DNA of 62,238 nt, filler included, from Hausera hauseri (taxonomy: Eukaryota), in assembly GCA_046269625.1 (NCBI GenBank). It is 9 parts of 9 records of this genome, joined end to end, with 100 filler letters (N's around TTAATTAATTAA, not from the genome) between each part and the next. Parts side by side here need not be neighbours in the genome. Positions count along the whole stretch, not along the records: positions 29,832 to 39,095 come from JBJURY010413255.1; 8 more parts are not named here. One strand, written 5' to 3'. Every line of letters begins with the position of its first letter. The stretch's first letter is position 1. The notes beneath the pieces are model-generated. The model worked only from the letters and a program-made list of their open reading frames with translations. It was not told where the DNA came from and ran no database searches. This document shows, in pieces, positions 21,513-52,680 of this stretch. Made by a program: the position numbers and the translations under genes.

Positions 21513-22515
21513 CTGTGTTCTCCATGGACAATCACCACCTCCATAGTCATATGTAATTCCTTCTCCTTCATTAATGTCAGTCACAGCAAATAAGCAGAGG
21601 TGTAGGTGTCCATCTACGTCAATTTTTTTCATCTTACAGTTTGGAGTCTTGTGCTCATCATTAACTAATCGTCCAAATGACCCATCTTCTCTTGAGGCAT
21701 CAATCCTTAAAAAGATGGAAACATGAAACATGGGATAAATACATATATCACAATATGACAACTTAGTTGAATATAAGAAATTAATAATTGTCTTTTAAAT
21801 TTAAAAGTGTCATTGCTTAATCAACAAGACCAACATGCTAGTTAACTACTATTAAATCAAATCAAAATTTATTTGTATTTTTACAACAGCTGTTGTCTCA
21901 AAGCAGCTTTACAGAAAAAGACAAAATAAGAAATCATTATGGACAAGCTGGTTGACCAGCATGACCAACATTACCAAGCTCGCCCACCATAATTAGCATA
22001 ATCAAGCTGGCAAGACCAGTTTGGACTCTCTGAAACTATATACATTTAAGCTGTGTGATATATTCAGATGTAAAGCTTACCACCATGTTTTTCCTCCCCA
22101 TTTAAATGCAAACATAAATGCAGCACACATCGGGTGATAAAGGCTTCTTCTTCTCTCTGCATCATTAATCATGTCTCCCCTGTATTCCAGTACAAAATCT
22201 CCTCTGCAAATTGTATTCTTTGCAAATATACCACGTCCTATAAACAAATAACAAACAAATAAACATATTCATTACAAACATAATGAATTCATCAATGATA
22301 AATGCTCAGATAACAGTTTTACAAAAGCTTTACATTTTACAAAAGGTTTTTACATGAGATGTTATGTGAGTACTCATCAGCTGATAAATATATAAATCTG
22401 ACACTACTATACCTTTCTCTGCATTGATGTATTTTATCTCCAGTTTGTATGTTTTGTCTGTCTTTGAAACTACGTGGAATATAGCATCATTTCGGGGGCT
22501 GATTCGTGGTGGCAT
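21513..22515 (-). CDS. SET domain (SETD8/PR-Set7-like) exons of the Crypton-type ORF
   Basis: Three GT-AG exons splice in frame to give EKGRGIFAK...GDFVLEYRGD...FMFAF..WIDASREDGSFGRLVND...PNCKMK..HLCLFA..DI.EGE.ITYDYG. Confidence 0.85.
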
Positions 22516-24408: not shown

Positions 24409-27372
24409 CTACCTTAATATATCAAACATTTCTTCTACCATTTCAGGAGTCAAATCAAATAACCAGTTAGAAAGTGAATTTTTAAATTTCTTAACAAAAA
24501 GGTTCGTTTTTAATTCACGTGGTACAAAGTTAAAAAATTTATATCCCAAAAAAGCAAATGATTTTTGAAATGCAGTACAGTATGATTTAGGTAATCTAAT
24601 TAAATCACTTGTTACCTGCCTTGTTACATAACTCTGAGAATCCCTATTTAAAACAGCCCCAAAATTACCACTTCTACGATAAAAAATTGTGAGAACTTTA
24701 AAAACATATAAATGACGCACTGGTTGTACACCTAAAATTCCAAACAGAGGATAAGAATGCTCCCTTCTATTCTTCCCCATAATTGACCTAACAATCGCCT
24801 TCTGAGCCCTGATTGCAGGCGCAATATGCGTCATGTATGTAGAACCCCAGCATTCAATCCCGTAACTTATTTTTGATTGGATAAATGCAAAGTACATATT
24901 TCTAAGAATTGCTACAGGAAAATTTCTTTTGAGACAATAAAATTTTCTTAACATCTGAATTAAATACTTCTTCAAATTTTGAATGTGAACCCTCCACGTT
25001 AGTTTCTCATCCACAGTTAAGCCCAAATATTTAACAACATCTGCCTTCAATATCTCAGTACAATTACACTGCGATAGTGAACAGTTAGCTTCATGACACA
25101 ATAGAGGAACAGATAGATCAAAAGTTGAAGATAGTGTGAAATTCATGTATTTAGTCTTAATGGTATTTAAAGCAAACTTATTATAATTAAACCATAAACT
25201 AAGATCATTAAGATCCTCTTGCATTATTCTACTCATTGTTTCCACATCCCTTGCATAATATGACAGAGCAGTGTCATCTGCAAACGATGTTATGCTCCCA
25301 TGAAACTTTCCAGAAAACAGGTCATTTATGTAAATAATAAAAAGTATAGGGCCAAGGACTGAACCCTGGGGAACACCACAATCCACACGCAATACATCAC
25401 TCCTGGCCCCACCAATAGAAACGCACTGTCTTCTCTCCTTCAAATAAGAAGTAAACCAGTCTAGAGCGATTCCTCGAACTCCAGCACTACTTAATTTTGA
25501 CAAAAGCATAGAATGGTTAACAGTATCAAACGCTCTTTTGATATCAAGAAATATACCTGCTACTTTACTGTTTTGAGAATTAAGATTATTATATATATTA
25601 TTAAAAAAATCATGAAGTGCAATCTCAGTACCAAGACCCTCCCTAAAACCATACTGGCCAGAATAAAAATAATTATTATTAGATAAAAATTTAAGAAGTT
25701 TAATTTTAACAAGTTTTTCTAAAAGTTTAGAGAAAACCGAAAGCAATGAAACCGGTCTATAGTTTTCAAGTTCCTCCTTAGAGCCACCTTTAAATATTGG
25801 AATTACCTTAGCATCTTTTAAGGCAGTTGGAAATTTACCTAAAACTAAACTACAATTATATATGTCCGTTAATACAGGAGTTATTAGCTTTGAAACTTTT
25901 TTAAGTATATTAGTAGATACACCATCAATTCCAGGAGCCTTATTATTTTTCAGTGAACATATTTGATCATAGAGTTCACTGCAAGTTATTGGTGAGAAAT
26001 ATATAGAATTACTACACTCTTTTACTTTAAACTTATTCTGACAATCCTTTTTCTGGCTCTCATTTAAATCACCAATAGAGGAAACTATAGATTTTGGAAA
26101 GTTAACAAAATAACTATTAAACAGTTCTGCAATATGGCGTTCATTAGTCACATAAGTATTATTAATTTTTACTTTTTTACATACACTGTTTTGTGGACCC
26201 CTTCCACTTAATCTATTAATTATATCCCATTGTTTCCTAGGCGTCATCTGCAACATTGTTTGGTAGTACTGATTCTTTGCTACTTTTATCCATTTTTTTA
26301 TTTTGTTTTTAAATACCTGATATTCACGTTTTAAAGTAACATTTCCCCTATTTCTTGCTACCTTTTTATATAATTTATCCCTTTTAGCAATAGCTTCGCA
26401 TAAGCCTCCAGAAATCCACGGTTTTAACTTTTTGCACACACTTTTCTGTACGTTAGGAACTACCACTTTCTTCGATTTATAAATAAAATTCAAAAATGTA
26501 CTAAGAAATGTATTAAATTTAAAGTCAACATCATCACTAAATAGAACCTCTGACCAGTCATGGTGCCGGAGGAAATCCTGTAATTGTTCTTGATCAACAA
26601 TCTCCACGGTTTCAGAATTGCGCCAGGTATTTGTACTCTGCTTTGCTATTGAGATTGAGATAGCCCTGTGGTCAGTTATTAGGGTCTCAATTACTGCGCT
26701 TCTCACCATATGTTTGTTCAAGTTAGATCTAAAAAATATATGGTCTAAACATGTTGAACTAATATCCGTAACTCTAGTATCACAGTTAATCATTGATCTA
26801 TATCCAAGTGAACTCAATAATTCTAAGTACACATCAACCTTAGCATCATTGGAATCATTAATGTTTAGATTTAGATCACCTATAATAACTGAGTCTTGGT
26901 GCGAGAGTGCATTTAAAGTATTACTAAAACTATCCAAGAATAGATCTGTATTATATCCATGCCATCTATACAATGCTAATACTTGAAAAGTATAACCAAA
27001 GAAATTAAGTTCCAATAACACCGCATCAGCCCCTGACACAGAACATTCATTCTTAGTACAGGTAAGCTGACCACTTCCAGTATATACATAAATAACCACC
27101 CCAGTCGCCCTAGAATGGTCACTTAATGAGCAATAGCAGTCATAACCATCTAAGGCATAGAGCGATACATCACCATCATCCTGCAACCACACCTCAGATA
27201 AGACAATAATGCAGGGTTTAACTCTCCAAACACTCATATAAGATACAAATATATCATAATTACTGGAAATACCTCTTATATTTTGATGAAGGATTGTCAT
27301 GTTACTGTTTTCCGTTACAAAGCAGGAGTTCACCTCATCAATTGAATCCAAAAATCTAAAGCTATCCTCCAT
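24409..27372 (-). CDS. LINE ORF2: AP endonuclease plus reverse transcriptase
   Basis: HQNIRG, LSEVW, GDLN, LDHIF and TDH (APE); KAPGIDG, NYRPVSLL, LDIKRAFDTV, GVPQGSVLGP, FADD and KYLG (RT). 987 aa, uninterrupted. Confidence 0.97.
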   Translation of the reverse strand: MEDSFRFLDSIDEVNSCFVTENSNMTILHQNIRGISSNYDIFVSYMSVWRVKPCIIVLSEVWLQDDGDVSLYALDGYDCYCSLSDHSRATGVVIYVYTGSGQLTCTKNECSVSGADAVLLELNFFGYTFQVLALYRWHGYNTDLFLDSFSNTLNALSHQDSVIIGDLNLNINDSNDAKVDVYLELLSSLGYRSMINCDTRVTDISSTCLDHIFFRSNLNKHMVRSAVIETLITDHRAISISIAKQSTNTWRNSETVEIVDQEQLQDFLRHHDWSEVLFSDDVDFKFNTFLSTFLNFIYKSKKVVVPNVQKSVCKKLKPWISGGLCEAIAKRDKLYKKVARNRGNVTLKREYQVFKNKIKKWIKVAKNQYYQTMLQMTPRKQWDIINRLSGRGPQNSVCKKVKINNTYVTNERHIAELFNSYFVNFPKSIVSSIGDLNESQKKDCQNKFKVKECSNSIYFSPITCSELYDQICSLKNNKAPGIDGVSTNILKKVSKLITPVLTDIYNCSLVLGKFPTALKDAKVIPIFKGGSKEELENYRPVSLLSVFSKLLEKLVKIKLLKFLSNNNYFYSGQYGFREGLGTEIALHDFFNNIYNNLNSQNSKVAGIFLDIKRAFDTVNHSMLLSKLSSAGVRGIALDWFTSYLKERRQCVSIGGARSDVLRVDCGVPQGSVLGPILFIIYINDLFSGKFHGSITSFADDTALSYYARDVETMSRIMQEDLNDLSLWFNYNKFALNTIKTKYMNFTLSSTFDLSVPLLCHEANCSLSQCNCTEILKADVVKYLGLTVDEKLTWRVHIQNLKKYLIQMLRKFYCLKRNFPVAILRNMYFAFIQSKISYGIECWGSTYMTHIAPAIRAQKAIVRSIMGKNRREHSYPLFGILGVQPVRHLYVFKVLTIFYRRSGNFGAVLNRDSQSYVTRQVTSDLIRLPKSYCTAFQKSFAFLGYKFFNFVPRELKTNLFVKKFKNSLSNWLFDLTPEMVEEMFDILR

Positions 27373-28363: not shown

Positions 28364-29221
28364 TTATACCCCATACTTGATTTTTAGATTTTCCAAATCA
28401 GCAAAATCGTTAATAGAATGTATTTGCTCACCTTCTTTCTGCCTCATGAAAATTTTGCCCTTTCGGATCCATACAAACTTAAATCCATGAGACCTCCTCA
28501 AGCCCCGGGCCTCCCAGAAAAGCTTCTTGACTTCTGGCGTTAAAGACGGATTCACATAAACAACACTCTCCGAAGAAAATCCCAGATCAGCAGCTGTAAT
28601 TCTTTTCTTCTCCCTAAATAGTTTCAAAAATTGTTCAGCATCTATCCTCCTCACAAATTTCACAATTATGTCTCTGGTACCATTCGATTTGAGATAAAGT
28701 CTGTGCATAACATCTATCATATCATAACGAAATTCAAAGTTCACAAATTTCGCAGTTTTTGATATAATTTCATCTAATTGTTCATGTTCTTTTGTTGGAA
28801 TACCTGAAATTTCGATTGTGTTACTCCGTTGATACTGCATAGACTCGTTAAATCGTTTCTTTAAATCACAAGTCTCTTTCCTTAACTTTTCATTTTCAAC
28901 TTTTAAAAAATTAACTTCAAAAAAACATTCTTTAATTTTCAAGTCCTGATCACTTATTTGTTTCTTTAAGTCATCAATAGATCCCTGTATATACTCCACA
29001 GTATTAATTAAACTTTTTTGTTCGGTTTTAATTTCTTTCAGTTCCTTGAAAATTAAATCCAATTTAGTTTCAATAGAAGAGACGGGCTTTGTATTAGAGG
29101 TAAATGGTTTACCCGGCTTATCACTGCCACCGCTCTTATCGCCCTTATCGCTGGACTCCGCATCCCCAGAGGCCGATCGTAAACCTGGTCTTGTTGTCAT
29201 TTTCCACTTTAAATAATTCAA
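28364..29221 (-). CDS. LINE ORF1 (coiled coil plus RRM-like/CTD, CR1-type)
   Basis: Coiled coil, then QYQRSNTIEISGIP..HRL..IIVKF..VYVNPSLT..L..AR..FKFVWIRKGKIFMR. The likely start is MTTR near 29200. Confidence 0.9.
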   Translation of the reverse strand: MNYLKWKMTTRPGLRSASGDAESSDKGDKSGGSDKPGKPFTSNTKPVSSIETKLDLIFKELKEIKTEQKSLINTVEYIQGSIDDLKKQISDQDLKIKECFFEVNFLKVENEKLRKETCDLKKRFNESMQYQRSNTIEISGIPTKEHEQLDEIISKTAKFVNFEFRYDMIDVMHRLYLKSNGTRDIIVKFVRRIDAEQFLKLFREKKRITAADLGFSSESVVYVNPSLTPEVKKLFWEARGLRRSHGFKFVWIRKGKIFMRQKEGEQIHSINDFADLENLKIKYGV

Positions 29222-29679
29222 CGTAAGGCATAAAATTTGAAATATTTACTTTTTACGCACACCAACACGAAAACTATTTTCACGAAAAAATTGTAAATAT
29301 TAAAATACACCCGTGAGCAAAAAATTAACTTAATACTCCAACTTTATCCCTTAAAAATAAACAAAGTCACAAGGAGACCGAATAGTAGACCTATTCACTT
29401 CGGCTCATTGACTCCAACTGAAATAAAGGATAGACAATATCAGTTACATTATGTATTTTCTCTTGAAGAATTTTTCTACGATGAATTACAGGGAAAACAA
29501 TAAAATAAACCTAATAACTCATTAAATTTACTTATATTACTAAAATTTATATAATATTCCAAACTTCAAATATTTATCATAAAATTAAAAATTCATTACT
29601 AAATCAGATTAAGTATTCTCACCTATTTGGGTTAGCTGACCTCTGTCATCATCACTAGAAATGTGCAAAAGAAAAAAAA

Positions 29680-29731: not shown

Positions 29732-30024
29732 NNNNNNNNNNNNNNNNNNNNNNNNNNNNNNNNNNNNNNNNNNNNTTAATTAATTAANNNNNNNNNNNNN
29801 NNNNNNNNNNNNNNNNNNNNNNNNNNNNNNNGTTGGATTAATGTTTGGCACATCAAAGATAGCTGCCTGTTGATCCACCGTTCAAATTTAAACAAAAATA
29901 TGACAACTATATCAATTGATGAATTCAATTTGCAACCTATTATTTTAAAATCAAAAGCATTATTTGCAGCCAGTAAAAACATTGAATGTTTGAAGTTGCT
30001 ACCGCTTATAATGTATCGAAGTAC

Positions 30025-33000
30025 TGGTCATCCTACGACGATGATCACTCATACAAGGGACTCTCTGGTTGAGGGACCGAGCGTGCCCGCCTCCGTTGCG
30101 CCATGTCCCCTTTCTTTCCTCGTCCTTTCGAATAATAAACATGTCCGCACATTAAGGGTTACGCACAAACAAACAGCTCATATTCTTTATACTGAATTGT
30201 TCCTCTTTTTCAGCTCCTCCGATTTTTATGCCATGCAGAACGGTGTAACTTTGCAACCTTACGACTCTCTTTCATCCTTTGCATCTGAGAAATATTCCAT
30301 CACTCTCACTGTCCATTTTCGCATGCGTGGTGGATCAAACCTTGACCCTTCTGCCGAAATTCTAACAAAAAACAGATCTTGTCGTCGTCCTGTCGACCCC
30401 ACACCATCAACATCTCCAAACCTTCGCTGCACAAACTTTTTCCTAGATAAAACGAACTCAAGTAGCACTTGGTTGCAGTTTCACTTGCAATGGCTCAAAG
30501 CCAATACATTACGGATTCCTTTCTGCGGGCTAACAGTTTGCTGCTCTTACTTCCAGCTAACATCAAGCAGCAAATCAGTAATCTGGCTGATATACTGTCT
30601 TATTCAAGCCTGTATGACATGCTGTATGAATCGGTTCTACATATCACCGACCCTTCAATCGACAGCATAATCCAGAAGTATTTTAATGAACACGCCATTA
30701 GAAATCAAAAACCATAAGATTTTCTCAAAACTGCCATCTCGCAATTGAGCTCTGGGCGTTACTAGCACAAACAATGCCGATCTTCTTCGTCGGTACTTTC
30801 TTTTATCTCTGCCAACCTTCATCCGAGTGCTGCTCACTGAAGTAGACGACTATACTGCCCTTGAAAAACTCGCTTTGTTGGCAGACAAAAGTTTTGATAT
30901 TCTACAGTCCAATAACTCGCAGCCAGTAGCCGCAGCAACTGCTCACACACTACAAGAAAACACTTTATTTGCACAACAACTGTACATGATGCAGAAGCAG
31001 TTCGACACACTCCAACAAGCAATTTTTGCAATCACAGCCCAACTTAGTGACTTATTTGTGCCTCGAGGAAGCGAAAATCGTATTTCTCGGAATCGCAGTT
31101 ATTCCAGGCACTCTTTTCGTTCTAAATCTAGAGATGGTAAAATGACGTGTTTATATCACAACAAATTCCGTAGATATGCAAGGAAATGTGTTTTAGGCTG
31201 TCGATTTTACGATGCTCGATATACCGTAGACAATCCAATCTGCATCTATCACGCAAAGTATCAGTCCAAGGCTAGGTCATGCGTGCCAGGGTGTAAACAT
31301 TATAAAAGGAATTCAAGTTCTTCTCCATCTTCTTCGCCTCCGCGCACTTACCATTCCTCCCCTTTCTACCAACAAGTCTCAACAAACCAATAATGCCACC
31401 AGATGCCACGGCACATTCTGGTAAAGGCAATATCGTTCAAACTACTGGCAGTTTCAACACCGCCTCTGCAGTCTTTCTGTTGAAAGCTGATCTGCTACTT
31501 GGATGCACATAACACAGACTTCCTTATCGATTCAGGAGTTGAGTATTCGCTTCTTCCTTTGTCTTTCACTCCTACATCTAACACAGTCTTCTCTCCTCCA
31601 CTTTTCACTGCCTGTGGTCAACCTTTGAACATTGTAGGTACCGCAAAATTGACTTTCACATTTTCCAACCTACCAGGCAAATTCTCCTGGAAATTTTACA
31701 TCGCGAACATCAGATCGCCCATAATAGGGTCCGATTTCTTGGCTGCATACGACTTGTTAGTAAACTGCAAGCACAAATGCCTCCTGCGCAAAAACGTCTT
31801 TGCAAATTCTAACAAATGCTCACCAAATGACCAGTCGGACACTTTGTCTTCCTTTGATCATTCAAATGTCACTTTGACATCCTGTTCATCGGCAACACTT
31901 AACAATTCATCAATATTTTCAATCTCGTCAAGTGGGAACATATCAATCTTAAAACAATCGGGTGAACCGAATGTCGTTAATTAATCATTCAATTATTCTA
32001 CATCAATTACAGCAACTGACTCTTATAATGATATGCCATCATCATTCTTATCGTTGGGTTCTGATCTAAAATCCTACATTAAGACTTCTTGTTCCCGTAC
32101 TCTTAAGAAGGACATCAATTTTAAGCCTCATTCTACAACATCACCATATAGTCACCGAACACCAAAGACCTATTATACAAAAGGTAAGGCCACTTTCACC
32201 TCGCAGAAGAAAAGCTATTGAATCACAGTTCAATGAACTTGAAAAGGCGGGCATCATTCGACAATCCAAATCACCATGGGCTTCTCCTTTGCATGTTGTG
32301 ACGACGAAAGATGGCACATACAGACCATGCGGTGATTGTCGGAAGTTAAATAGTCTAACAGTCATGGATGCTTATCCGTTACCTCTCATAAATGACATCC
32401 TGCACAGCCTTACCAACACTAACACGTACTCCACAATTGACTTGCATAAGGCATATTATCAAATTCCTGTTGCACCTGATGATATTCCAAAGACTGCATT
32501 TGGCTGCCATTTGGCTTAAGTATTGCTTTTCAAACTTTCCAACGGCACATTGACACCGTACTCTCAAGCCTAGATTTCGCTCATCCATATATTGATGACA
32601 TACTAGTTGCCTCTACGTCTGTCAAACAACATCAAGAACACTTTCGTATTATCTTTCACAGGTTACATCATAGCAATTTGTAAGTCAACTTCGCCAAGTG
32701 TCAATTCTTTCAAAAACGTGTAAATTTTCTAGGTCATATCATCACTCATGACGGCCACTCTCCACAACCGGATCGATTACAACAATTGAAGAACATAACT
32801 CTACCAACGACTACCACAAACATGAGAAGCTTCTTAGGCACACTCCACTTCATCCTCAAATACGTACCACATTGCTCTGAGCTTACATCACCTTTCGCAC
32901 ATTTATCTTCAGGGAAAAAAAGGCAGTTGATCCACTGGACTCCTGATTTGGTAACCAAGTTTGATCACTTGCGCGAAGGTCTTAAACCCGTAGAAATACT

Positions 33001-34887
33001 GGCTTATCCGAAACCTAAGGCAGATCTTATTTTTACAACCGATGTCTCAACCACAGCTACTGACGCTGTACTGCATTAGATCTCCAATTGCGTCGACGAG
33101 CCATTAGAATTCTATTCTAGGAAACTGACACAACCCGAGAGCTGTTACTCCACATTTGACCGTGAGTTACTCGCCATAGTTCTGGCACTAAAACACTTCA
33201 CACACTTACTTCTCTTTCCTCAATTCGTCATTCAAACTGACCATAAGCGTCTGCTGCACATTATGTCGTTAAAAGAGCCATGACTGAGGCAAGAGAGACA
33301 TATATCATACATGTCTACGTTCAGTTTTGTCTTGGAATATATCTCAGGTACAGATAACTTGGTAGCTGATTTTTTACGGAGGTCGGTTGGACCATTATAG
33401 TTAAGCCAATTTTCTCATCTGAAGTCTTAAAGGCCAATCAACCATCTGCTGATTTTCTCAGCTCCCTCAAATCCTTTGAGATCATTGATGGAACAGCTTT
33501 TGATACATCTAATACAGGTAATAAAAATGTCATTCTAGCACAACCTTTACAAAATCCAGCTTTTGTTCATACGCATTCATTCCATCATCCAGGTTCGAAA
33601 GCAACTTTTCGCCTACTTTAACGTCATGTAGTATGGCCATCAATGCGTAAAGATGTACAGGACTGGGTCAAAGAATGTATAGCCTGCCAAAAATACAAAA
33701 TCAACAAACACCTTAAACCATCACTTTATCATTTTTCCTGTACATCACGCTTTCATACAGTTAATCTTGATTTAGTTGGTTCTTTACCTGCCGACAACGG
33801 ATATCAACACATACTTACTATGATGGATCGTGCTTCTCGTTGGCCTGAAGCCGTTCCTCTTCGTTCGACAAACACTGATTCAGTAGCCGACGCCTTTATT
33901 AAAATCTGGATCAGTCGCTTTGGTTCCCCACGTTACATAATAACGGATCAAGGTCCACAATTTGAGTCAGAACTTTTCAAATCCCTTGTCAAACGCTTGG
34001 AAATATCCCATTTTCATACTACACTATATCATCCTCAAGCAAATGGCCTTCTTGAAAGGTTTCATCGCACAATAAAAATTTCTCTAAAAATCTTGGCTGT
34101 GCACATCGCAATTAGACGTCCATTTTACCATTTGTTCTACTAGGTTGGCTCAACACACTTTCGACCACGATCGGCTGTACTCCAGGCGAAGCACTTTTTG
34201 GGACTTCAATTCGGGCTTTATTTGAACTTTCTGATCTCGACGACAATTTCACAGATGAGAACATTCGTGCAACACAATTTCATTTTGTCGAGGTGAGCTC
34301 AGATTCATTCTGTCGCCTTTTTAACAACAACAAATCCTACATTCCAAAGGATCTATACTCCGCCAAGTTTGTTTGGCTGAAGGATCAATCTCCTTCAGGT
34401 TTTAAACCTCAATATGTTGGCACATACAAATTATTAAATCTTTCATCTCACATACCTACCGTTTTACGCCAAAACAAACCTTATAACGTCCACATTTCGA
34501 ATCTGAAACCTGCTTTCTTTATTGGTGACATTTCAGATACCAATTCTTCATTCAATTCAAACTCAGCTAGCACTTCTGCTGACTTTCTAAATGATTTTTC
34601 ATTACCTCCAATTGCATCGCCTTTTTTCTGGACTCATCTCCGCCACCATTTCCATCACAAACTATTACTCAACAACCCAACATAAATCTATCGAATAAGG
34701 TGCTCAGAGTGACATTCAGTACGTGCAGCAGAGGAAAGTTCATTGATGGCACACAACGCCTAACTGATACTAAAACCGATTAGGCACCAAAATTGCTCCT
34801 TTTCATGATTCATTTGCTCTCATATATTATCTTTATCATTCCGTTTCACATTTACATAGTCTCTTTTCTACACGGGGGGGGGGGTGA
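30025..34887 (+). mobile_element. Gypsy LTR retrotransposon (CsRn1-like), copy 1 internal region, degraded
   Basis: PBS-like TGGTCATCC at 30025; UBL-Gag; protease LIDSG; RT SPWASPLHV / YPLP / IDLHKAY / YIDD; RNase H; integrase (HH..CIAC, LDLVG, TDQG, ERFHR); G-run PPT at 34874-34887 followed by TGTAGT. Confidence 0.92.
30103..31393 (+). pseudogene. Gag with N-terminal ubiquitin-like domain and two CHCC zinc knuckles
   Basis: UBL ends TLTVHFRMRGG at 30334. Gag core KP..FL..LLRR.FL..LP..IR..L..LEKLA.LADK. Knuckles CLYHNKFRRYARKCVLGC and CIYHAKYQSKARSCVPGC. Confidence 0.75.
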
Positions 34888-34975
34888 TGTAGTGGCATGG
34901 TCGCTGGCGCAGCTCGATTTCTCACCAGGATGCTAGTTGTCAACGTAATGCTAAAAACAAACGTTTCATCCGAGA
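34888..34975 (+). repeat. start of 3' LTR of Gypsy copy 1
   Basis: TGTAGTGG immediately after the polypurine tract. The LTR end is not determinable. Confidence 0.55.
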
Positions 34976-35454
34976 CATCACTTTCTACCATCTTCCAGCA
35001 AAGAGGGTTCCACGACCATTTATTCCAAAAGTGAATCATCCAGAGGACATATTGACCAGTATTAACTTCAGCGATTTAGTTACCTCATCTTACACTTCTT
35101 CAATATTCTTTTCCAGCGGATAGAAGTGTGTAGACATTGATTTTTGTTTCAAAGATAAAATATAATGTACGAAAGATGTAAATAGACCTGCCAATTTTAT
35201 ACCAGAACAACCTTTGTCAGTTACATCGTCTCACTAAATCCTCATCACTCTGGACACATCTCTAATCCAAAGATATTAAAAAATGTATATGTATAGAAAC
35301 ATCTGTATATAAATAATTGAAAAAAAGTGATTGATTTATGAACTGAACCGTTCATTTGAAATTTAAAAGAAGATGAGGTGAAACTGTTTTCATGAAAATT
35401 TTGGATTTTTTCTTTTCATTAACCGTTTACCTGTTATACCGAAATTGAACCAAA

Positions 35455-36890
35455 TAAGGAATTGTCTGAAAGCTTCAATTTTTTCAGGCCTGTATATGCC
35501 TTTTGTTGCAGTATCTTGAAATTTGTCGTCTGTAATCAGTTTGACGAGGTTTGTTCCATTTAGTCTATTTGGGACGGCAGTGATGCCTCCATTTGGTAAA
35601 CTAACCCAATCTGTTTCACTTCGCCTAAACATAGGTTCCCCTAAACTCGCCTTACAATCTTTAAGGAACGTTCGTTCAGTTGCATTATCTAATAACACTC
35701 TAGTAAGCGGTGTGGCTAATCTTGGAGTATCCTGGTAGATAACGGGAAGTTCCTGTATACAATGTTTTTCTTCAACGTTGATAGATACGTCTTTTTCTCA
35801 CATTCGTAAGTCAATAATACTTCTCCAGTAACTCGACCGAAAATGTCTTCATTCATAGGAATTATTGAGGATGCAAACTCAGGATTATCATAAATAAGAG
35901 CCAGTTTTGTCCTCATTTTTTCCACGTCCAACTTACAATCATTTGTTACCATTTTATGATATAACTTGGTTATTCCGACTTGCTCTTTGTAATAGAAATA
36001 ATCGTTTCTGATAGTTAGTGGCGCCTGATAGTTAGTGGCGAACATCACTATTTCACAACTAAAAATCATTTCTTTATTAATAAATTTTAGTCCATGCTGA
36101 TCAGAGATTAATATAGTGGGCGTAAGATGCTCTGATTCGTCTTCGCGTGTCCTTGAGTTGGTATCAGATTTATCCACATGTCGCTTTCCGGTAGTTTCAT
36201 TAAACTTTAATTCCTTAATTTTTATAAAATTACACCTTCTTCCAGAGGGAGGTTCCCATATAATAACAGAGCTTCTAAACGCACAGGTTCCGTCTTGTAA
36301 ATGACATTTTTGATTCTCTGTGTATAGTTTGGTGACACTATGGAACATTACTTTCTGTGCTCGCATCTCTAATTCATAGAAATCTACGAACACTACGTTT
36401 GCTTGTAATTCTTTTTCGATGTCGTATTCCGCTCCGTTACAATGTTCGTTATGCATGTCTAACCTTCCGACAACTACCTTCTATGCCCTAATTATCTTTT
36501 CTGGTTGCATTTCTAATTCCATACTGTCCCATTGTACTCTTCCGATTTCCTTAGCCTCTTTGCAGTGCTGGCATTCTAAGTTTATCGGAATCGGCGGGGT
36601 TGTTGGATTGATTATCGAAAAATGTCCGTGCATTAAACCACAATGGAAGATACTACGAGATCTTCTCAACATGCTTTCCATTTCGTCTAGTGATAATAAT
36701 TCTTGTTGTTGGTACAAAAAATAACTTTTCTCTCTCGTTTCAAACTTGTGCGGTCGGGCGTCTTTGCATACTTCTAAATCCATTAGAGAGTATTTCCGTC
36801 CTAGTTTAAAGCTTATCGGAGTCGTAGACATTAACAGCGACTATATGTTTTATTAGCATCATCAAGGTGAATAAACTGATTAGCCAATTT
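35455..36890 (-). pseudogene. chuvirus-like (class III, gB-related) envelope glycoprotein, C-terminally truncated
   Basis: Hydrophobic signal LISLFTLMMLIKHIVA, then VYD..YSLMDLEVC, HCGLMHGHFSI, HCNGAEY, CHLQDGTC..IIW..C, LYHKMVTNDCKLD, GRVTGEVL..YEC, CIQELPV, PLTRVL, PMF..W and GIY. The Cys spacing and motif order match chuvirus-type G. Frameshifted; no TM anchor seen. Confidence 0.75.
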
Positions 36891-39095
36891 GATTCGTTTT
36901 TCCGGTTATTATTATCGGTTGTAACCAAATTACGTAAGATCCTCGAATTTTTACTATTGCCGAACCGTTTGTCTTTTTCTTTGTCCAATAGTCACAACCA
37001 ATTTACTTCTCAAGATAGTTTCCTCGCCGCTCTTTGTGTTAAGCTCATAGCTCTATCAATCTCATTTTCTTGATTCGGGTTTACTTTAATGCCTAAGTAT
37101 ATTAATACTTTCCTTAATTCTTCAGTGGTGTTTTCTACCATGATTCTTTCAATTACCAATTTGTCGTTTAAATTACTTTTTGATATTTTAAAACGTGAAC
37201 TTTTCATTATTATGGCCGCATTGAATATTGCTTTTTCTTTGTCATCTAATATGTCACCTCGAAGACTGGAATAATTTACAATACGTATCAAATTCTTCAT
37301 TAAATCGCTTAATTCTTCATTGTCTGTGCTGAAAGTCAGAACTGACATTTGTCTTAACTCCCTAATCAATTCTCCATTATAATCAACTTCTTCCCGTGTC
37401 TTCCTAGGCCTACAGACTGGACGTTTCTGTTTCGGGATACTGGCTATCATTTCACTCAGTGGTACTAAATTCTTGTTGTATTGTTCCTTGTCCTCATCCG
37501 TCTGTAAATACTCGAAATACATTGCAGCGTCTCGGACTCCCATGACTTGTCCTACACACTGTTCTGTCTCAGCCTTTCGTGTGGTTTCTTCTTTAGTCTG
37601 TTCATTTGCTAATGTTGCTATTATCTCATTTGTCTCGCCGGGGATAATCTCGACATCTATTAATTGTCCTAAGTCGTCTAATATTCTACCTCTAAAGTAA
37701 AATCTATAATTTAACTCATTTGTTCCACCATTACTTATCAACCATTCTTTTACGTCCCTTACATAGGAATACGTAGTTAGTTCACATTCTTTCTCATCCA
37801 TTCACTTAGAAGATATCATTACTTTCATCGCCATTTCAGGTTTAGCTCTCAAGATTTTAGCGTACTTCCTTATCAAAAGATTCGGCACTGCGCTATAAAC
37901 TGTACTTTCACTGGATAATTTAGTTAGGGTCGGAAGAAGTTGTCTAAGTTTGCTTTCAGCAATGATTTCGTCAGTTAGTTCAATTAGATCCTTTTCAGTT
38001 AGCGCTGAATTTAAGAGCATCTTCACGTTGAACCTTCTGTTCTGTAAACTCGTTCCTATTTCGTTTAGCTGTACCGGAGTTACAGGGTTTCCGGTCGCTA
38101 ATACTTCTAAATATGCATTCAATTGCGGTTCGTTTCCGATGTCTGAAAGCCCTGATCGACTAGTATTGTGCTTGCCTTTTGTAAATTTTCTCGAATCTCT
38201 TTTAGCCTTGGCTGTATTTCCTTCATCTGCGTGGTNNNNNNNNNNTGGTTCGAAACCCTATTCTGTTTTTACAGACATACTGAATCATTTTCAGCATTTC
38301 GCCTAATTCGTTAGATTTGATAAACCCTTTTGGTGATAATCCGTTCGTTCAATAATTACGTCTCTTTGCCATCTTTGTACAAATTCTAGCTTATTTTTAA
38401 TTTCCGAATCGGTAAAAACATATTTTTTCCGATAGATTTCAAATTTTTTTGTTAGTTTGTCTAACCTCGTTGTTCTTTGTTTGGTTCTAATTCATGTTTC
38501 TTCGACTTGCTGTGGTTTGGGCATCAAGTGCCTCATTTTCTCGTCATTAATCTCTGCCATTTCTACTAATAGGAAGATTAACTCGTACATTTTATTTATG
38601 ATTTTCGAATCAGGGTCCATTACAGCGAGCAATTTCTTTATGAACTTAGATTCCTCAAAACTGATGCGTTGATCGTTTCTGATCCGATTCAGCTTAATAT
38701 AGTAATTCTGGTCGGTCCCGATCATCCATTCTTGTGGTTTATAAAAGAATTTTATTGTTTCCGCTAAGGTTGTTCTATGTTCCAGACAAATGTCTAGGGC
38801 TTTGATACCCTGGGTTGAAATCTTGTTAATAGATTTATCTGTTAAATGTCGGATTCCTTTTAGTCGGATCTTTCTTAATCTTGGATAAAAATTGCAAGTC
38901 ATATTTTGCTTTTCTGCAAAGTTTTGTTCTTCGATCATTTTATAAATCTCTTGCAATATCGTCGCTTCTTGATTCTTCGTCATAAAGTTCAGTCGTCGTA
39001 ATGATTCGAATTGACTTAGGTTATCTATTTCTGTCTTTATTGTATCTAAGTTATGTGCGTCTTTTTCTAATTGTTTCTTTTTGGAAGGCTCGCTC
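36890..39095 (-). pseudogene. upstream part of the same decayed polyprotein: LRR-like repeats, helical region, ubiquitin-like domain
   Basis: ORFs 37802-38122, 37010-37801 and 36806-36988 share one frame, separated only by TGA codons. UBL-like MKVMISSK*MDEKECELTTYSYVRDVKEWL..NYRFYFRGRILDD..LIDVEI. LRR-like LSQFESLRRLNF and YPRLRKIRLKGIRHLTDKSINKI. Confidence 0.6.
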
Positions 39096-42830: not shown

Positions 42831-44009
42831 ATGTTTCTGATTAACCTTTGTTTTAATATACTTTTAATCAACTTTCTATCTTCTGCATATATATATTTGC
42901 ATTTTATCTAACGTTTCATATTTATCATTGTTGCAATCGAGTACCGATTCATGATACAACTGATAAAAATTAAGATTGTCTATAATATTATTTATACCCG
43001 TGATTTTTGAATGCATCAATTGAACCACGAAAACGATATATAGCACACCAGGATTATCGATAAAATGATCATATGGGGGATTTTTTAATACAAAACGAAT
43101 ACAACTTGGTTCAACAATTGTCATAATAACTAAAAAATACTTTTATTATTATTAAACGGATGCAACACTAAAGCAATCAATATGTTCAAAATTTTGTTTT
43201 GAAATTCTGCAACCTTGCTAAGTGTGAATATTAAAACAAAACCAATTTTAGGCCGTCAGAATTTGATAAATGCTCTGAAGCCACCAACAATTGTCGAAAA
43301 CACAAATGAATCGTGTAAAACTAAAAAAACAATATTGACCACCAAAGAAAATCGTAAATATCCAGCACAAAGAATTTCGAAAACATACCACAAGAACAAA
43401 ATTATCAAATAAAATGCGTTATACATTGGTAGTATTATAAATTGTAGGATTATTAAACAATTGCATGGTTAAATTTTCTTCTACTTGGTATTGATTGTTG
43501 ATGAACACTGAAATATTGGCTAATGAATAAATCCCAACAATAAATTCCCATATTATAATTTTGTTTGTCGCAATGAGTAATTTTCGAATCATATTCTTTA
43601 GACGTTGAATCGAAATTGAAACGAAATTATCCAAGCATAAAATAGTTTATTGTTAAAATTCTGTGAATACTTTTATTAAGTGATGACAAAATATCTTCGG
43701 TATTCATGGATTATCCAATAACGACAAAGCCTGATTACTTAACAAACGCGTACATGGATCGAAATTCGCTAAATATTTTTCCGATATTTATACTTTTTAT
43801 TGATATCGAATAAACTGTTGTGACACTGACAACGACTTGGGGAACACTTCGTAAATAAGTATTGAGATTTTAATTGAAACACTTGAGTCTTAAAATATTT
43901 ATAATCAGAACTTTGGTCGATGTATACGATTAATGTTCGTCACTAGAGTTGACGAATCATAACGATCCAGGATCTAGAAATGATAAATTACTGAAGATAA
44001 TTTTGTTAT

Positions 44010-45064
44010 ATGGTCAGTTTGAATTAGCTTTCTTCAAAGCTTTAGTTAACACATTAGCAATCACACACATTCATACGTCATCTTACCTCCCTCAAGCAAA
44101 CGGATTAATCGAAAGTTTTTATATAACGCTAAAAGTGTCGTTAAAAATCTTCGCCGAAGCCAATCAAAACTGTCTGTCAATTCTCCAATTAATTCTCCTA
44201 GGTTGCAGAAATATTCCATCAACATCAACTGACTGTTTCCCAGCACAAGCTTCGTTTGGAACATCTATCAGGGCACTGTCTGACGTTACAGAAAGTGAGC
44301 AACACCTACAGATCAGAATATTAACGCAGTAAGACAACATTTTATTTACCTGGATAATGACGCGTTTTGCAAAGTGCTAAACCAGGAAAAGACATTTGTA
44401 CGAAAGGAAATGTATGAAGCAAAGTTTGTCTGGGTGCGTAACCCATTACAGCACGCCTTTCAACCGGCATATATTGGACCATACAAATTGATCAAATTGC
44501 ATTCGCATAACACTAAAATACTTCGCGACGGAAAGAAATAGTCATTAACGTTTCAAATGTGAAACTAGCATTTGTTATTACAGACGATGCAGAAAAAACG
44601 GATAATGAAAATAAAACCCCTGATAGTAAATCATTGTTACACGATTTATTTAACTTACCGCCACCAAACTCTCCAAACAATATTAATTCAAAATAATAGC
44701 CAACGTAATCACGATTCAATGCCTCAAGCAAGAGAAATAATTGAGGAAGTCTCCAGCCTCTATAATTGTCTAAATACCGGAACAATGTCTCCTTTTCTAC
44801 CGAACATCCACATTGAGGACTGGTCAAATGGAGCGGGAAATGAGCAAACGCAAACTTCTCAAAATACGTTACTTTCCACAAACATGTCAAACGAACTACC
44901 AGCTGTCACCATAAAAACACGCAAAAAAGTGCAGTTTAAACCCTATAGTCATGTACAGTATCCTTCTGGTAGAATTAGGACGACTAAAACTTAGTGTTCA
45001 GTTTTCGGATAAATCCATCAAAATAGCTGTTAATCATAATTTGTTAACTTCTCACAGGGGGATA
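44010..45064 (+). mobile_element. Gypsy integrase C-terminal fragment with 3' region and PPT
   Basis: GQFELAFFKAL..HIHTSSYLPQANGLIESF..LK.SLK; AKFVWVR..FQPAYIGPYK. PPT AGGGGGA precedes TGTTGTG at 45065. Related to the other Gypsy copies. Confidence 0.8.
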
Positions 45065-45619
45065 TGTTGTGCCTAAAAATAATAGAATTTCGGGCATCAT
45101 TTTTCATTGACATTGAATTTTGAAAATTTCATAAATTTGTAATTAGATACAATATTTATAACATCAGTAAATTCTTATTTTTTATTTATATTATAAATTT
45201 ACAGCAAACAGGAATAATATGTGGGGAAGCAGAATAATTACCGTGACAGCAATTGCAAAGCAATAAGAAAAATGAGAAACCTTTCAGTATGTAATTTTGT
45301 TTTAATCGAAATAAAAATCTCCTTTTGGTGACTTCAAATTTCAGTACAGACTTCTTTTAATCTTCATCGAGGATAAAAAGCACATGAAGTACCTCGTTAT
45401 GCGATATATACGAACGAGAACGGAGCCAACAATCCAGAAGCTTCACACATGGAAACCATTGAAAGCCTTCTATAAATCTCGACAAACATAAACCAATTAT
45501 TCGCTAACCAAAATGCTCACTTAACAAATTAAAAACATCCATTGTCCCATACTGTCGAACATCATTGTGCACAAACCAGTAACCTTCAAATTTCTCTAAT
45601 CCATTAACATACGGTATAA

Positions 45620-46060
45620 ACTGTCGAGGCAACATGTTTTAATAAATTTCTCCTAAAACGTCTGTTGCAATAAATAAGCCACGAATTGACCTGAATATAT
45701 TCCCATATAAAACCAAAGTAAATAATCCAATTAGTGAACTTTCTGAGAATCGAAGATTGAATTTTACGAAATTGATGTTTGTAAGCATAAAAAGAGCGAT
45801 TTTAATTAAACATTGCTTTTCCATGAGGCACACTTTCAACTTAAATGATATGTATAAAATCAGAATTGACCAGAAAATCATCCTCACTCCATTTTAAAAT
45901 AACTTCATCCATTAAGAGTACCATAAGTTTTGATATGGTAATACGCCATTATTTATAGCAACAACAGTTTCGGGAGAAGTTTATTTAAACATATTACAAG
46001 ACAATTTTATACCGTATTTGTATGGATTGGAGAAAACTGAGGTTACTAGTTTATACGTCA
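45620..46060 (+). mobile_element. Tc1/mariner (maT/rosa-like) transposase fragment
   Basis: Frameshifted pieces DLNIFPYK..RRLNF, FS.EAHFQL, ENHPH..LHPLRV and TVSGEVYLNILQDNFIPYL. Confidence 0.55.
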
Positions 46061-46514
46061 ACATAGGAGTGTAGTTCAAAAAGTTTTCGGAAAATGTATT
46101 TTTGAAATTTTGCTAAACTTATTAAATCTCTATAAATTAAGTACGCGCAAGTTTGATTTTAGTTTCTAAATGTATATACATATATATACATCACGTAAAG
46201 TAAATTTATAATTTTTCTCATTTGTTTTGAACATAGTTATGCTTTTCAACTATCTAAAATAAATTTGACTGCAATAAAAATAACTGTAGTAATCTATTGA
46301 TATTATAGTATAAATGTATAAATCTATGTACAACTGTATATATTTTTGCCTATTTGTCTTATTTTACAGTGTGATACTTTTAAATTTAATTTAATAAATT
46401 TGACGGCATAAAACNNNNNNNNNNNNNNNNNNNNNNNNNNNNNNNNNNNNNNNNNNNNTTAATTAATTAANNNNNNNNNNNNNNNNNNNNNNNNNNNNNN
46501 NNNNNNNNNNNNNN

Positions 46515-48070
46515 AAAAAAAACAAAAATCATTTTCTTGTGATCACAAGGAAACCAAAATTAATGCAGTTATTCAGGAGAATTCTAGGAGTCAATTTACA
46601 CAAGATCAAGGTAATTGTTTTTCTGTTTATTTTGTCATTAGCTTTATTTTCTTTGTATCTCAGATTGGATTTCTCAGAACGGTAATTGTTTATTTTATGG
46701 GTATATTTATTTTCTTTATTTTAGACTTGATTTGGATTTCTCTAGACTGCACACTTCTACCAGGGCGCAATCAAACCCCCCAAAAAGTCAGACAATTATT
46801 ATTTTAAGATTTCCTGTCAAATGATTCAGGGAAAATTCGCATTCCGTTTGGAACCAACAATTGGTGTCAGAAAAACCAGATTTCATCCTCCAGACCAGGC
46901 TCGGCCATAAAGATTTCCGCGGGATTGAGTGATCTTCATGCAGACGATCATAATGGAAATACAAGGTGGGCGAATTTTCTATATTTCGTACTTTTGCGTT
47001 TGTTCACAAAAGTCATTTCTAAATCAAACTCCGTGACAGAAACACTGTTCAAGCATTGGTTTGAAAAGTAGCTAAAGCGAAAGGCACGGAAATTCTAAAT
47101 AATTGGAAAGAATTTCAAATGAATTTAGACTCGACGTATGGATAAATTTATAGTTATTTTATACAACAATATATACATGTTGAATAGGATCAATTTATTT
47201 ATTGATGCTAGTTATTTATGTATAGAAAATACAGAACTCTTCATGGCTGTCCACAATTTGTCATGCAGACATTTTCCACTGCTTCTTAAATATTATAGAT
47301 ATTCAACTTTAAACGAATTGTCTGAAGCTGTATTTAGTAAATAGTTACAAAGCATACTTTGGATTTTAATATCATATCAAAAAAAATTACCAACATCACT
47401 TGGAAACATTTTTCGGGAACTCCAACAAATGATTTTTTCGGTATTCGATTTTAGTAGTTTAAAAAATTCAAAACTCTCAAGTCTAGTCATTCCTGTGTTA
47501 AAAAATTTGAAATCTTTCAAAATTGCAAATTCATCCTTTGATTTGGCATCCATCGACAATATGCCAAGGAAATCTTTCGTCTTAATTGATGCAGATGTAA
47601 TGAAATTGAATTCAAATCTAGAATGGTATTTGGAAACAGTTTTTCACTCGGATGATAACTTCATCATTAACGACGATATTGTAGCGTCGGAAGAACTTCT
47701 CATGAAACTAATTAGAAGAACAAATGAAAATATTTTTCGGACGTTGGATAAATTTTATCACGCCTCATCAGATGCTCTTCAGACTTATCACTTTGCAAAA
47801 ATATTTTTGCCGAAACTGTGTCTGTGTCGAACTTTTTAAGTAGTACAGTGTTGTCTTCAAAGCGATCTTCTAGAAATTTTGCAAATTTTCTGATCAAATT
47901 AATAAGTCATGCTTAGTGTTTTCTTACACATGTTGTCGAATTAGAACCCAATGAAGAGTTACCCAATTTTCATCATTTCGAGCTCCTGCTGATATATTTT
48001 AAAAGCCCAATAGAAAAGGAAACAGTTACGATTGAAATCATCCAAGAGTCTGCAATTTATGCAGAACTAT
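46515..48070 (+). pseudogene. unidentified, probably decayed host coding region with short introns
   Basis: GTAATT..AG candidate introns of about 40-55 nt near 46611-46724, and open frames 47138-47344 and 47429-47839. No recognisable family. Confidence 0.25.
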
Positions 48071-48072
48071 TT

Positions 48073-51000
48073 TTAGTGAGGGTTTTCGACCCCTAATATG
48101 TCAGTGCCACTGTGATGCGGTTCCATTCCCGGTTCCTTGTCCCAGGGTCGTAGGTCAGGATGCGTAGCACTCGGGGCCACCGCGACATGCCTCTGGCACC
48201 AAAGTGCACACTTTCGTTTCCTTTTTCTACCAAAATAAACATCAATATGCATATAACACATACGCATACACAACACCATAACTTCTCCACTCATTCAACA
48301 CAAAACATCTATCTTTTAAAAACTTCTACCTCCATCTCAACGGTTTTCTTCATCCAACAGGCGATTCACCTCTTTTCATGCCTTTCCGATATGTTTCCTC
48401 CATTATTTGCATCACACCCAGACTTTTTGGTGGCTCTGATATTAATTCCGACACATCGGAAACGAAAAATACACATACAATTCCAATCGTCCACCTTACA
48501 AAATCCGCCACCAACACTACTTTCCAATGCGTAGATTTCTTCCTTGACAATCAAAACTCACCTCGTACCTGGTTAGATTTTCATACCCGCTGGCCCAATG
48601 CACACAAACTCACTGATCCGTTTCTTAAAGCCTGTAGCTTGCTCGTCTACTTGACTTCCTCTTTAAAGTCACGCCTTCAAACCTATCTGACATTTTCACA
48701 GAAGCTGACCCCTACAACTCCTCTACTCTGCAATACTGAAACTTACTGAACCTTCTATTGACTAAATAATCCAAAAATACTTTAATAACAACACCTTGGG
48801 CAATACCAAACCCTCCGACTTTCTTCAAACTTCTTTATCGCAACTGAGCACGCTAGGCGTAACACAATCAACCAATTCCGATCTCTTAAGACGCCGCTTT
48901 CTGCAATCCTTGCCCAAGGAAATTCGAGCTCTTCTAACTGTCGTGGAGGACAGTGCGTCACTGGAAAAATTGGAACAGTTTGCTGACAAAAGCTTTGATA
49001 TACTACTCAGTCAAACTCAACCCAAAATTGCAATAGCACTGACAACACCAGCAATACACAATCAAAACACAATATCAAACATTGATAATCAGTTTCAATC
49101 ATTGCACAGAGAGAATGTAACACTACGACAAGCAATCACAGCCATCACAGATAAGCTCAATCAAATTTCAATGCCACGCAGATCTTTTTCTGGGAATCAA
49201 CGGCTTCCACAAGATCGAATCGTTTTTCGCGCAACAGTTGTCCTGTGCTCGGTCCAACCTGTTTTTTACTCCAAATTTAAGCAAGACGCAATTAAATACT
49301 GCATAGTATGCAGATTTTACAATCAAAGCTTTATATCAAATGACACGGCCTGCATTTATCACAATAAATGACGCGACAATGCTCGCAAGTGCATATCAGG
49401 TTGTAACTTTTACAATTCTTCGGCAGTCAAACTCAACAACATTTTCAAAAAACCAACCACGCAACCAGAAGTCACGGCAACCTCTGGTCATGGTTCAAAC
49501 GCTTCATTAAACAGCCGTAACTCATTCTTTGCTGTCTTTAAACTGCAAGCCACCATTATGTCTAAATATTCTGCCGCCAATTTCCTCATTGATACTGGAG
49601 CTGCAATCTCACTCCTTCCTCTCTCTCTTATGAATCGCAAAAATCTTCTTCAAGCAGTTAATCCTTATTTACAGCCAATGATGAACCGTTGCACACCATT
49701 GGCACAGCACATCTTTCTTGTTATCTGCCAGATTTTTCCAAACCTTTTTCTTGGAAATTCATAATAGTCAATGTTTAAAGTCCAATCCTTGGATCAGACT
49801 TTCTTTCACATTACAATTTACTAGTCAATTGTAGACACAGTCGTTTGATGGTAAGCCCTTCCTCCAAAATTTTATCAGTTTCATCAGTTTTATATTCAAC
49901 TTCACCAGCGTGCGATTCAATTATAAAACCAAATATCAAATCAATTTTAAAAAATAAAAATGTTGTAAATAATCTTGTACATTATTATACCTCGAATACC
50001 TACATTTCGAACGTTGAGAGTAATGAGTCTTCCTCTTCAGGCGACATCATCTCAAAATTACCTTACTCAATGATCAAGTGTCCACGTCGTCATCATCTTT
50101 CATCCAACCCTTATCTGATCTTCAAGCATTGGTCACTACTCAATGCCCAAAAATTCTCAAAAAAAGATTCATTCTTTAAGCCTTCCCCCAACACATTTCA
50201 CCACATTGTTACTTTTCATCATCGTCAAATTAGGCAAAAGGTGCGCCTCTCTCACTACGTTGCAGAAAAGCCGTTGCTAAAAAGTTTCAGATTTTAGAGA
50301 ACGCTGGCATTATCAGACGTTCCAAATCACCATGGACATCACCTTTACACGTCGTGCCCAAGAAGGACGACACCTTCAGACATTGTGTTGACTATTGCCA
50401 GCTAAACACCATTGCAATTATGGACGCATATTTATTACTTCTGATTAACTACATCATGCACAGACTGCATGGTAAAACAATTTGTTTGTCCATCGATCTC
50501 CATAGGGCATATCAACAAATTCCTTTTGCTCCGGCTGACATACCGAAAACGGCTGTAATAACACCATTCGGTCTTTTCGAATATGTCTATATGCCTTTTG
50601 GGCTTCTCAGTACCTCACAGATATTCCAGAGACACATTGATACAGTTCTTGCCGGACTAGACTTTGCTTTCCCATATATAAACGACATTCTTTTCGCGTC
50701 GTCATCCCCCAAACAGCATGAGGAATATTTGTGCATAACTTTCCGACGCTTGCACCAGAACAACTTTGAAGTAAACTTTGCTAAATGCTGTTTTTTCCAA
50801 CATAGAATCAACTTTCTTGGACACGTTATCACCCAATCTGACCATTCTCCCCAACAAGATCGCATCACTCAACTCAAAAATGTCTAACTACCACGCACAT
50901 CAACAGAAATGCGCTCTTTCCTTGGAACGCTTCACTTCGTGCACAAGTATGTGCCTCACTGCTGAACACTCACGGCCCCATTCACCTCAGTGAGCTCCGG

Positions 51001-52680
51001 TAAGAAGAAACAGCTTATGCACTGGACTGTTGATTTAGTCAATTCTTTTGATTACCTCAAGGATAATTTAAGAACTGCGGAAATCCTTGCATACCTTGAT
51101 CCACATTCGGAACTTTTCTTAACAACTGACGCCTCCACAACAGCAGCAGGCACAGTACTGAATCAATTAAGTGACGGTTCCAATCAACCTCCTGAATTCT
51201 TTTCACGAAAATTCTCGAAAATCGAACAACGCTACTCGACTTTAGACAAGGAACTTCTTGCAATGATCCTAGCATTAAAGCATTTTAAACATCTAATTTC
51301 ACGCACATTCACCGTTCAAACGGACCATAAGCCTCTACTTCATATTCTCACCATGAAATCTCCATCTCCACATCAAGAGAGATAGATTACATATCTTTCA
51401 ACGTTCGCGTTCAAAATAAAACATATTCAGGGTTTGACAATTTAGTGGCTGATTTTTTGTCGCGCTCCGTCCACTCTATCACATTTGCACCCATTTTTGA
51501 TAGTGAGTTACTCTGACTGAACCTGTCAGACGAGTCTATTCTGTCCGCCTTCAAATCTTACAAAATCATTGATGGCGCAGCTTTTGACACCTAAAAACCT
51601 GGGTTTACTAAAGTTATTCTTTCACCTTATTTGAAAAAACCGCTTTCACCAATATCCATTCTTTGCACCATCCAGGATCAAAAGCTCCTTATCGCCTTCT
51701 TAAACGCCAAATGATGTAGTCATCAATGAAAACAGATGTGTAGGACTGGGTTAGAGAGTGTGTGGCATGACAGAAGTTTAAAGTAGCCAAACACCTCAAG
51801 CCGCCACTCTATTATTTTCCTTGCACATTACGTTTCGACACTGTCCACATCGACATAGTCGGACATCTTCCACCTGGCAACGGCCATAAATTCATTCTTA
51901 CGATGATGGGTCATGCTTCTAGATGTCAAGAAGCCGTTCCACTTTGCTCATCCAACACTGAGACCATTGCAGATGTCTTAATACGCACGTGGTTCAGCAG
52001 ATTCGGCTCACCTAAGCACATAATTACTGATCAAGGCCCTCAATTTGAGTCTAATTTTTCAAATCATTAGTAAATCGACTGGGGATCAAGCATATTCACA
52101 CAACACCTTATCGTCCTCTGTCGAATGGACTACTTGAGCGTTTTTATTATGCTATGAAAATCTCCCTTAAAATTCTAGTCGACTATATCAACACTGGAAA
52201 AACCTTCTTCCTTACGGAACACCCCATCCACAACTACTGGCTGCTTTCTGCCCGAGGCATTCTTTTGTACACCAGTGCGTGCATTGTTCGAGTTGGCAAA
52301 GTGCGATGAAACACCCACAAACAAAACTATCCGGGCTGCGCAGGAGCACTTTGTTGCACTGAATATCGATTTGTTTTACAGAATTTTAAATCACAACAAA
52401 CCATACATTCTTAACACTCTATATGCAGTCAAATTTGTCTGACTGAAGAATTCAGTGTCGCATGGGTTCCAGCCTCAGTAGGTTGAGCCTTTCAAGTTAA
52501 TTCGTTTGAATTCACATACTGCTATAATCCTCAAAAGAGGAAAATAATGCTCATTGCACATCACTAACATTAAACCAGAATTCTTTATCGATAATAACTC
52601 TGATTATTCTGTTCCGCTTCGCATCAATTCCTTTCTTAATGTTTTTACCTAGCCTTCTATTCCACCTCGCAACAAACCTC
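48073..52680 (+). mobile_element. Gypsy LTR retrotransposon (CsRn1-like), copy 2, degraded
   Basis: UBL ending ITPRLFGG (48434); Gag LGNTKPSDFL..LLRRRFLQSLP; protease LIDTGA; RT (IPKTAVITPFGLFEY.YMPFGL, YIND); RNase H TTDAS / DKELLA; integrase remnants. Confidence 0.9.

Follow-up and report, generated by a model that had tools for sequence, protein, structure and literature searches.

The window, a stretch of 62,238 nucleotides from Hausera hauseri, consists of separate contigs linked by N/TTAATTAATTAA spacers. One of these contigs (C413255, window 29832-39095) hosts on its minus strand a truncated and decayed gag-to-env interval of a Burro-like Ty3/gypsy element (35456..39095), colinear with many other copies at ~72-83% DNA identity. 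In the direction of coding, and all on the minus strand, it carries: a spacer predicted to be all-alpha (38495..39094), which lies between Gag and a ubiquitin-like domain; the rest of this spacer (37829..38494), broken by a stop at 38494 and by frame changes according to frame analysis and paralog alignment; a likely ubiquitin-like domain (UBL; 37610..37828), integral and devoid of a terminal Gly-Gly, assigned from Pfam and PDB matches and interrupted here by an in-frame stop at 37802-37804; a putative helical domain conserved in 22 copies, at the position held by BCL2 in Burro (36995..37408); an internal signal-peptide-like hydrophobic stretch (36836..36886), seen in the sequence and as a hydropathy peak in paralogs; and an Env ectodomain of gB/chuvirus type (PF24664; 35456..36835), cut off ahead of its membrane anchor.

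The copy on contig C413255 and its surroundings

A preliminary description of this DNA had reported more than 3.6 kb of minus-strand coding sequence open to the contig end, and such a sequence does run from 39095 to an abrupt break at 35456. The right limit of the copy is the contig end and its left limit is another repeat, at 35455; the same boundary recurs in 2 other contigs. This repeat (window 34930-35455), which abuts the break of the element, has 43 matches in the genome (G000).

The copy is heavily damaged. Stops occur at 38494, 37804, 37012, 36994 and 36483, and the frame changes near 38325, at a 10-N gap (38236-38245), and near 38165, 36810 and 35790. The segment 38122-36806 had been described as a single frame; it is one, although the stops at 37804, 37012 and 36994 lie within it. 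Continuity over the 10-N gap, previously assumed, holds, since one paralog gives a single match over 36021-39094 and its residue 410 flanks the gap on either side. In Env, 24 codons are missing near 36020. At this site a direct repeat of 16 bases, its period being 17 bases (window 36008-36040), resembles a repair scar. This copy makes no product.

Ahead of Env, the stretch already read as signal-peptide-like is hydrophobic (36886-36836). The Cys-rich glycoprotein that follows it, described as chuvirus-like, was recognised as such by PF24664 (Monjiviricetes_fusion) with E 2.7e-13 and 49 bits versus a cut-off of 27, the window Env being read through with X for this match; in a paralog the same family was found at E 8.6e-41. 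In paralogs the Env ectodomain is located between two hydrophobic peaks, corresponding to signal and anchor. By eye, it matches six S. mediterranea ENVs of HSV/gB type (Smed_errantivirus, PMC13524379 supplement) in its eight cysteines and their order, and has motifs in common with them. Among copies, dN/dS of Env is ~0.05. No PDB sequence matched Env, protein library searches with env among the long proteins and with the env ectodomain returned no relatives, and none was found among viral contigs. The single match of the profile search, a saposin-repeat protein scored over 4 stretches, was discarded as due to chance.

Other mobile elements were observed in the window. A separate, smaller decayed Gypsy element occupies the plus strand of the same contig (window 29832-34934) and has relatives at ~43900-57400, in other contigs of the window. 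It belongs to a different family, its RT/INT being just 36-38% identical to those of the Burro-like family. The earlier statement that no RT is visible therefore stands for the minus-strand element and fails for the contig, which has RT/INT on its plus strand. By eye, a LINE-like endonuclease/RT frame of 987 aa, open and preceded by an ORF, was seen on the minus strand (24409-27372 and 28364-29245), as were pieces of tyrosine-recombinase-like and SET-like ORFs (17599-21794, minus), possibly from a recombinase transposon. Because the parts of the window are separate contigs, the presence in it of another ubiquitin-fold gene is meaningless.

The element rebuilt from other copies

To recover what this copy lacks, its extension through paralogs had been proposed, and gag, pol and LTRs were indeed found in other copies. 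An env probe gave 215 matches in G000, a lower bound, as 110 of 9,894 candidates were scored; with the spacer and with the protease probe the number scored was 150 of 150, in each case again a lower bound. The order along the element, as deduced from copies, is LTR, primer site, gag, helical spacer, UBL, helical domain, signal peptide and gB/chuvirus-type Env, followed in the same frame by protease, RT, RNase H, integrase and a second membrane protein, and then by a RING-bearing ORF2. Upstream, gag was identified by Retrotrans_gag (E 0.0034) and by one CCHC (E 7e-6), and in these copies it shares a stop-free frame with spacer and UBL. An anchor follows env, ahead of protease, and the pol families come after env in Ty3/gypsy order: RVP, RVT_1, RT_RNaseH_2, Integrase_H2C2 and rve. 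From gag to the end of ORF1, each of the 12 successive junctions (12/12) can be read across without a stop in at least one natural stretch; for three junctions this comes from a single locus. A conserved insert of 92 residues separates PR from RT, where Burro has a dUTPase-like domain; no dUTPase match was obtained for it in Pfam scans and none in a PDB sequence search.

The loci contained 22 matches to LTR ends, one of which was dropped as a chance match in coding sequence. Primer-site-like sequence follows 16 of the 21 real LTR ends and unrelated flanks follow the other five. Of 16 rows aligned at the LTR start, 14 have a purine tract ahead of it. The LTR measures ~745 bp; its TG..CA ends, the primer-binding site and the polypurine tract are those expected of a Ty3/gypsy element. 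A single exact-pattern search for the primer tRNA gave no match. In G000:C199969 two copies are arranged in tandem with a spacing of 16,339 bp, and the unit measures ~16-17 kb. Tandem element-LTR-element junctions are frequent in the family (L029, L100, L117, L118, L080/L081), and it is because of them that the RING ORF is located ahead of gag. This ORF (L029:799-1140; L082:1658-2113) ends at the purine tract and the LTR start, and its position inside the LTR was ruled out on this ground. Among LTRs (L029:1136-1879 and others) the first part differs strongly from copy to copy and the final 300 bases are common to them, with a short inverted repeat extending over the terminal 45.

All eight segments tested by pairwise comparison of stop-free stretches gave dN/dS of 0.05-0.17, indicating purifying selection; these values are rough, with dS at 1.0-2.4, near saturation, and rows picked for being stop-free.

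An endogenised chuvirus or other RNA virus without any retroelement would account for the fact that the sole family match of the glycoprotein is Monjiviricetes_fusion. The copies, however, have env in frame with gag and with protease/RT/integrase and are bounded by LTRs, no nucleoprotein or RdRp family was found in the Pfam scans, and the viral contigs provided no relative. We consider such an origin extremely improbable, a chuvirus endogenous viral element being ruled out by the in-frame gag/pol and the LTRs. We conclude with high confidence that the stretch is the dead, truncated middle of an abundant Ty3/gypsy LTR retrotransposon carrying gag, a likely UBL, gB-type env and pol in one frame, in the Burro order. 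The earlier proposal, in which a ubiquitin-like module is fused in front of an env of chuvirus/gB type within a large enveloped retroelement, is thus borne out. Four of its points have to be revised: the stretch is not the tail of the element but its middle, since the same frame continues past env into protease, RT, RNase H and integrase; the carrier, given as unknown, is a Ty3/gypsy LTR element with LTRs, purine tract and primer site; the LRR/F-box mimic lacks support; and the architecture had already appeared in print for planarian Burro elements.

The spacer and the likely ubiquitin-like domain

The spacer probe gave 150 scored matches at 54-80% identity besides itself, and dN/dS of the spacer is ~0.13. 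This is the part that had been called LRR-like, on the basis of two F-box/LRR-like motifs. Both motifs are present (39019-38984 and 38884-38828), but the F-box/LRR identity fails. The spacer model is helical, with pLDDT ~70-93 and no strands. The Foldseek comparison proposed for this segment yielded no significant fold match, with nothing at E<=0.001 and helical bundles only. Neither LRR nor F-box occurs in the PDB profile matches of the spacer or, except for one 'F-box associated' match (1/25 rows, E 0.019), among the Pfam matches listed (25 of 39 families). The classic LRR core pattern was counted 14 times, versus 10.7+/-3.1 in shuffles. The beta-alpha solenoid of repeated LxxLxL units and the F-box motif that define an F-box/LRR protein were not found in the spacer, and protein library searches with it returned no relatives.

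The element could be as described and its spacer nonetheless contain a short, degenerate LRR patch of cysteine type, mimicking an F-box/LRR substrate receptor. When the LRR_CC unit pattern is fitted by eye, one stretch of the spacer accommodates ~1.5 LRR_CC-like units, and this motif is kept across copies; yet the same stretch is modelled as a confident helix, no LRR profile or fold matched it, and no F-box motif accompanies it. We therefore regard this patch as unlikely, and keep the spacer as a predicted helical region.

An integral UBL without di-Gly had been placed at about 37600-37830, and the sequence matches support it. At E<=0.1, 21 of the 40 copies matched Pfam ubiquitin, the best with 6.4e-4, the Pfam cut-off being reached in none of the 40; among the best 60 of 70 PDB matches, 57 are ubiquitin-fold proteins, with E>=0.03 for the single domain. 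Gly-Gly is absent from the end of the UBL in all rows (40/40), and dN/dS is ~0.13. Fold models of the UBL are poor, the model of UBL plus helical domain having a pLDDT of 37. As judged from sequence, these matches point weakly but consistently to a UBL, which makes this identity likely. For the domain at the BCL2 position, dN/dS is ~0.08, and neither a Pfam Bcl-2 match nor a PDB match was obtained.

As the UBL resembles host ubiquitin-fold proteins, it might be thought that the UBL and the 'LRR' part are host genes in their own right, or were captured recently, and that they ended up next to an env relic by coincidence. Against this, spacer, UBL and env are colinear in many copies, and all parts are under similar purifying selection. 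Moreover, stop-free frames cross from spacer to UBL in 4 loci and from UBL to env in 3 distinct contigs. These fused frames in independent copies exclude the case of separate host genes, which had been named in advance as one of two outcomes that would overturn the proposal, and leave a chance association with hardly any probability. We thus retain the UBL and the spacer as parts of the retrotransposon.

The end of ORF1, the relatives of the element and its possible working

After integrase, a second predicted membrane protein was observed (L083:1641-2950, minus), with a signal-like motif, a Cys-rich ectodomain and a strong anchor; the resemblance of the ectodomain to FN3 domains is no more than a lead, with a score of 0.86 and recognition below threshold. 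ORF2 carries a RING finger (E ~5e-7 to 5e-6) and gave weak RNase_T matches (E 0.03-0.07). Between the two, the terminal stop of ORF1 is kept in 35 of 36 alignments (L083:1638-1640, minus; other copies L121-L149). It is followed by CAR-YYA in 25 of these 36, and most of the others are off by one or two bases, a conservation that counts as one evolutionary event as copies share ancestry; as background, 0.23% of the stop-like triplets in the loci are followed by this hexamer. In most copies the frame past the stop is open for ~40 codons before the first Met. Third-position variation is 0.04 over the 45 bases after the stop, versus 0.19, codon-like, further on, and RNA folding after the stop is modest (z of -2.2, one copy). 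Similar use of readthrough is made by the soybean SIRE1 element. In tobacco mosaic virus, CAR-YYA alone directs readthrough (PMC2194720). The sequence context suggests a candidate programmed readthrough of the ORF1 stop into ORF2. No report of readthrough in Burro elements was found in the literature, as judged by titles and abstract openings.

The gag-Ubl-(Bcl2)-env-pol architecture has been described before, in planarian Burro elements. In the section of PMC6431247 devoted to them, ORF1 of Burro/GYPSM1 comprises in frame gag, Ubi2/SUMO-like, BCL2, env, PR, dUTPase-like and RT, the env region matches mononegaviral glycoproteins, and Burro is presented as the first case of an in-frame env between gag and pol; in PMC11410931, Burro is mentioned only. 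Like Burro1-4/GYPSM1 as described there, the present element has one ORF with gag, UBL, a domain at the BCL2 position, a mononegaviral-type env and PR-RT-RH-INT, an accessory ORF with ubiquitination-related domains, and many copies. It differs in its unit of ~16.3 kb with an LTR of ~0.75 kb, versus an internal region up to 25 kb and >30 kb in total for Burro, in its ORF1 of ~4,000 aa (summed from two loci) versus 4,873-5,140, and in its one CCHC versus 2-3. BCL2 and dUTPase are Burro features, whereas no profile match was obtained here at either position, and BIR, MATH and ankyrin, the Burro cargo, were all absent from Pfam scans of ORF pieces. Conversely, the second membrane protein and the readthrough context found here are unmentioned in the Burro section of PMC6431247. 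Protein library searches returned no Burro sequence and no named relative. By its domain order, the element is filed as a compact Burro-like GAG-ENV-POL element, and not as Burro because the Burro size and the BIR/MATH/ankyrin features are lacking.

PMC13524379 describes GAG-ENV-POL elements of gB type in flatworms, nematodes and bryozoans, those of flatworms having ENV of HSV/gB type only. With Smed_errantivirus_1-6 of that study our element shares a Ty3/gypsy pol, an env between gag and pol, and a gB-type ectodomain between signal peptide and anchor with, by eye, the same eight-cysteine order. Unlike them, all its copies seen here are decayed; the words ubiquitin and RING have 0 occurrences in the main text of PMC13524379. 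Mosquito BEL/Pao elements with a chuvirus-like glycoprotein (Dezordi 2020, as cited in PMC13524379) likewise are LTR retroelements that captured a glycoprotein of this kind, but here the gag and pol families are those of Ty3/gypsy and env is ahead of pol.

An intact element would produce a polyprotein of ~4,000 residues threaded through the ER membrane. Gag, spacer, UBL and helical domain would stay on the cytosolic side, the internal signal would direct the Env ectodomain to the lumen, and the Env anchor would bring protease, RT, RNase H and integrase back to the cytosol; another surface protein would then be formed with a second signal and anchor. The pieces would likely be separated by signal peptidase and by the element's own protease, and particles would likely fuse with neighbouring cells via Env, copies spreading by reverse transcription and integration. 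Because it has no Gly-Gly, the UBL is probably a non-conjugated module for binding or decoy rather than a tag.

More tentatively, and with somewhat more doubt than conviction on our part, the family may be a compact Burro lineage with two surface proteins, in which TGA-CAR-YYA readthrough would extend the second protein, on its cytosolic tail, by an exonuclease-like/RING E3 module and, together with the UBL, form a membrane-anchored ubiquitin-manipulating kit. The copy in the window is the relic of an element whose kind was already in the literature, and matters little in itself. Its analysis enlarges the Burro-like GAG-ENV-POL elements by one compact family and disposes of the LRR claim. If true, the readthrough joining the second membrane protein to the RING ORF would show how giant polyprotein elements dose host-interfering cargo.
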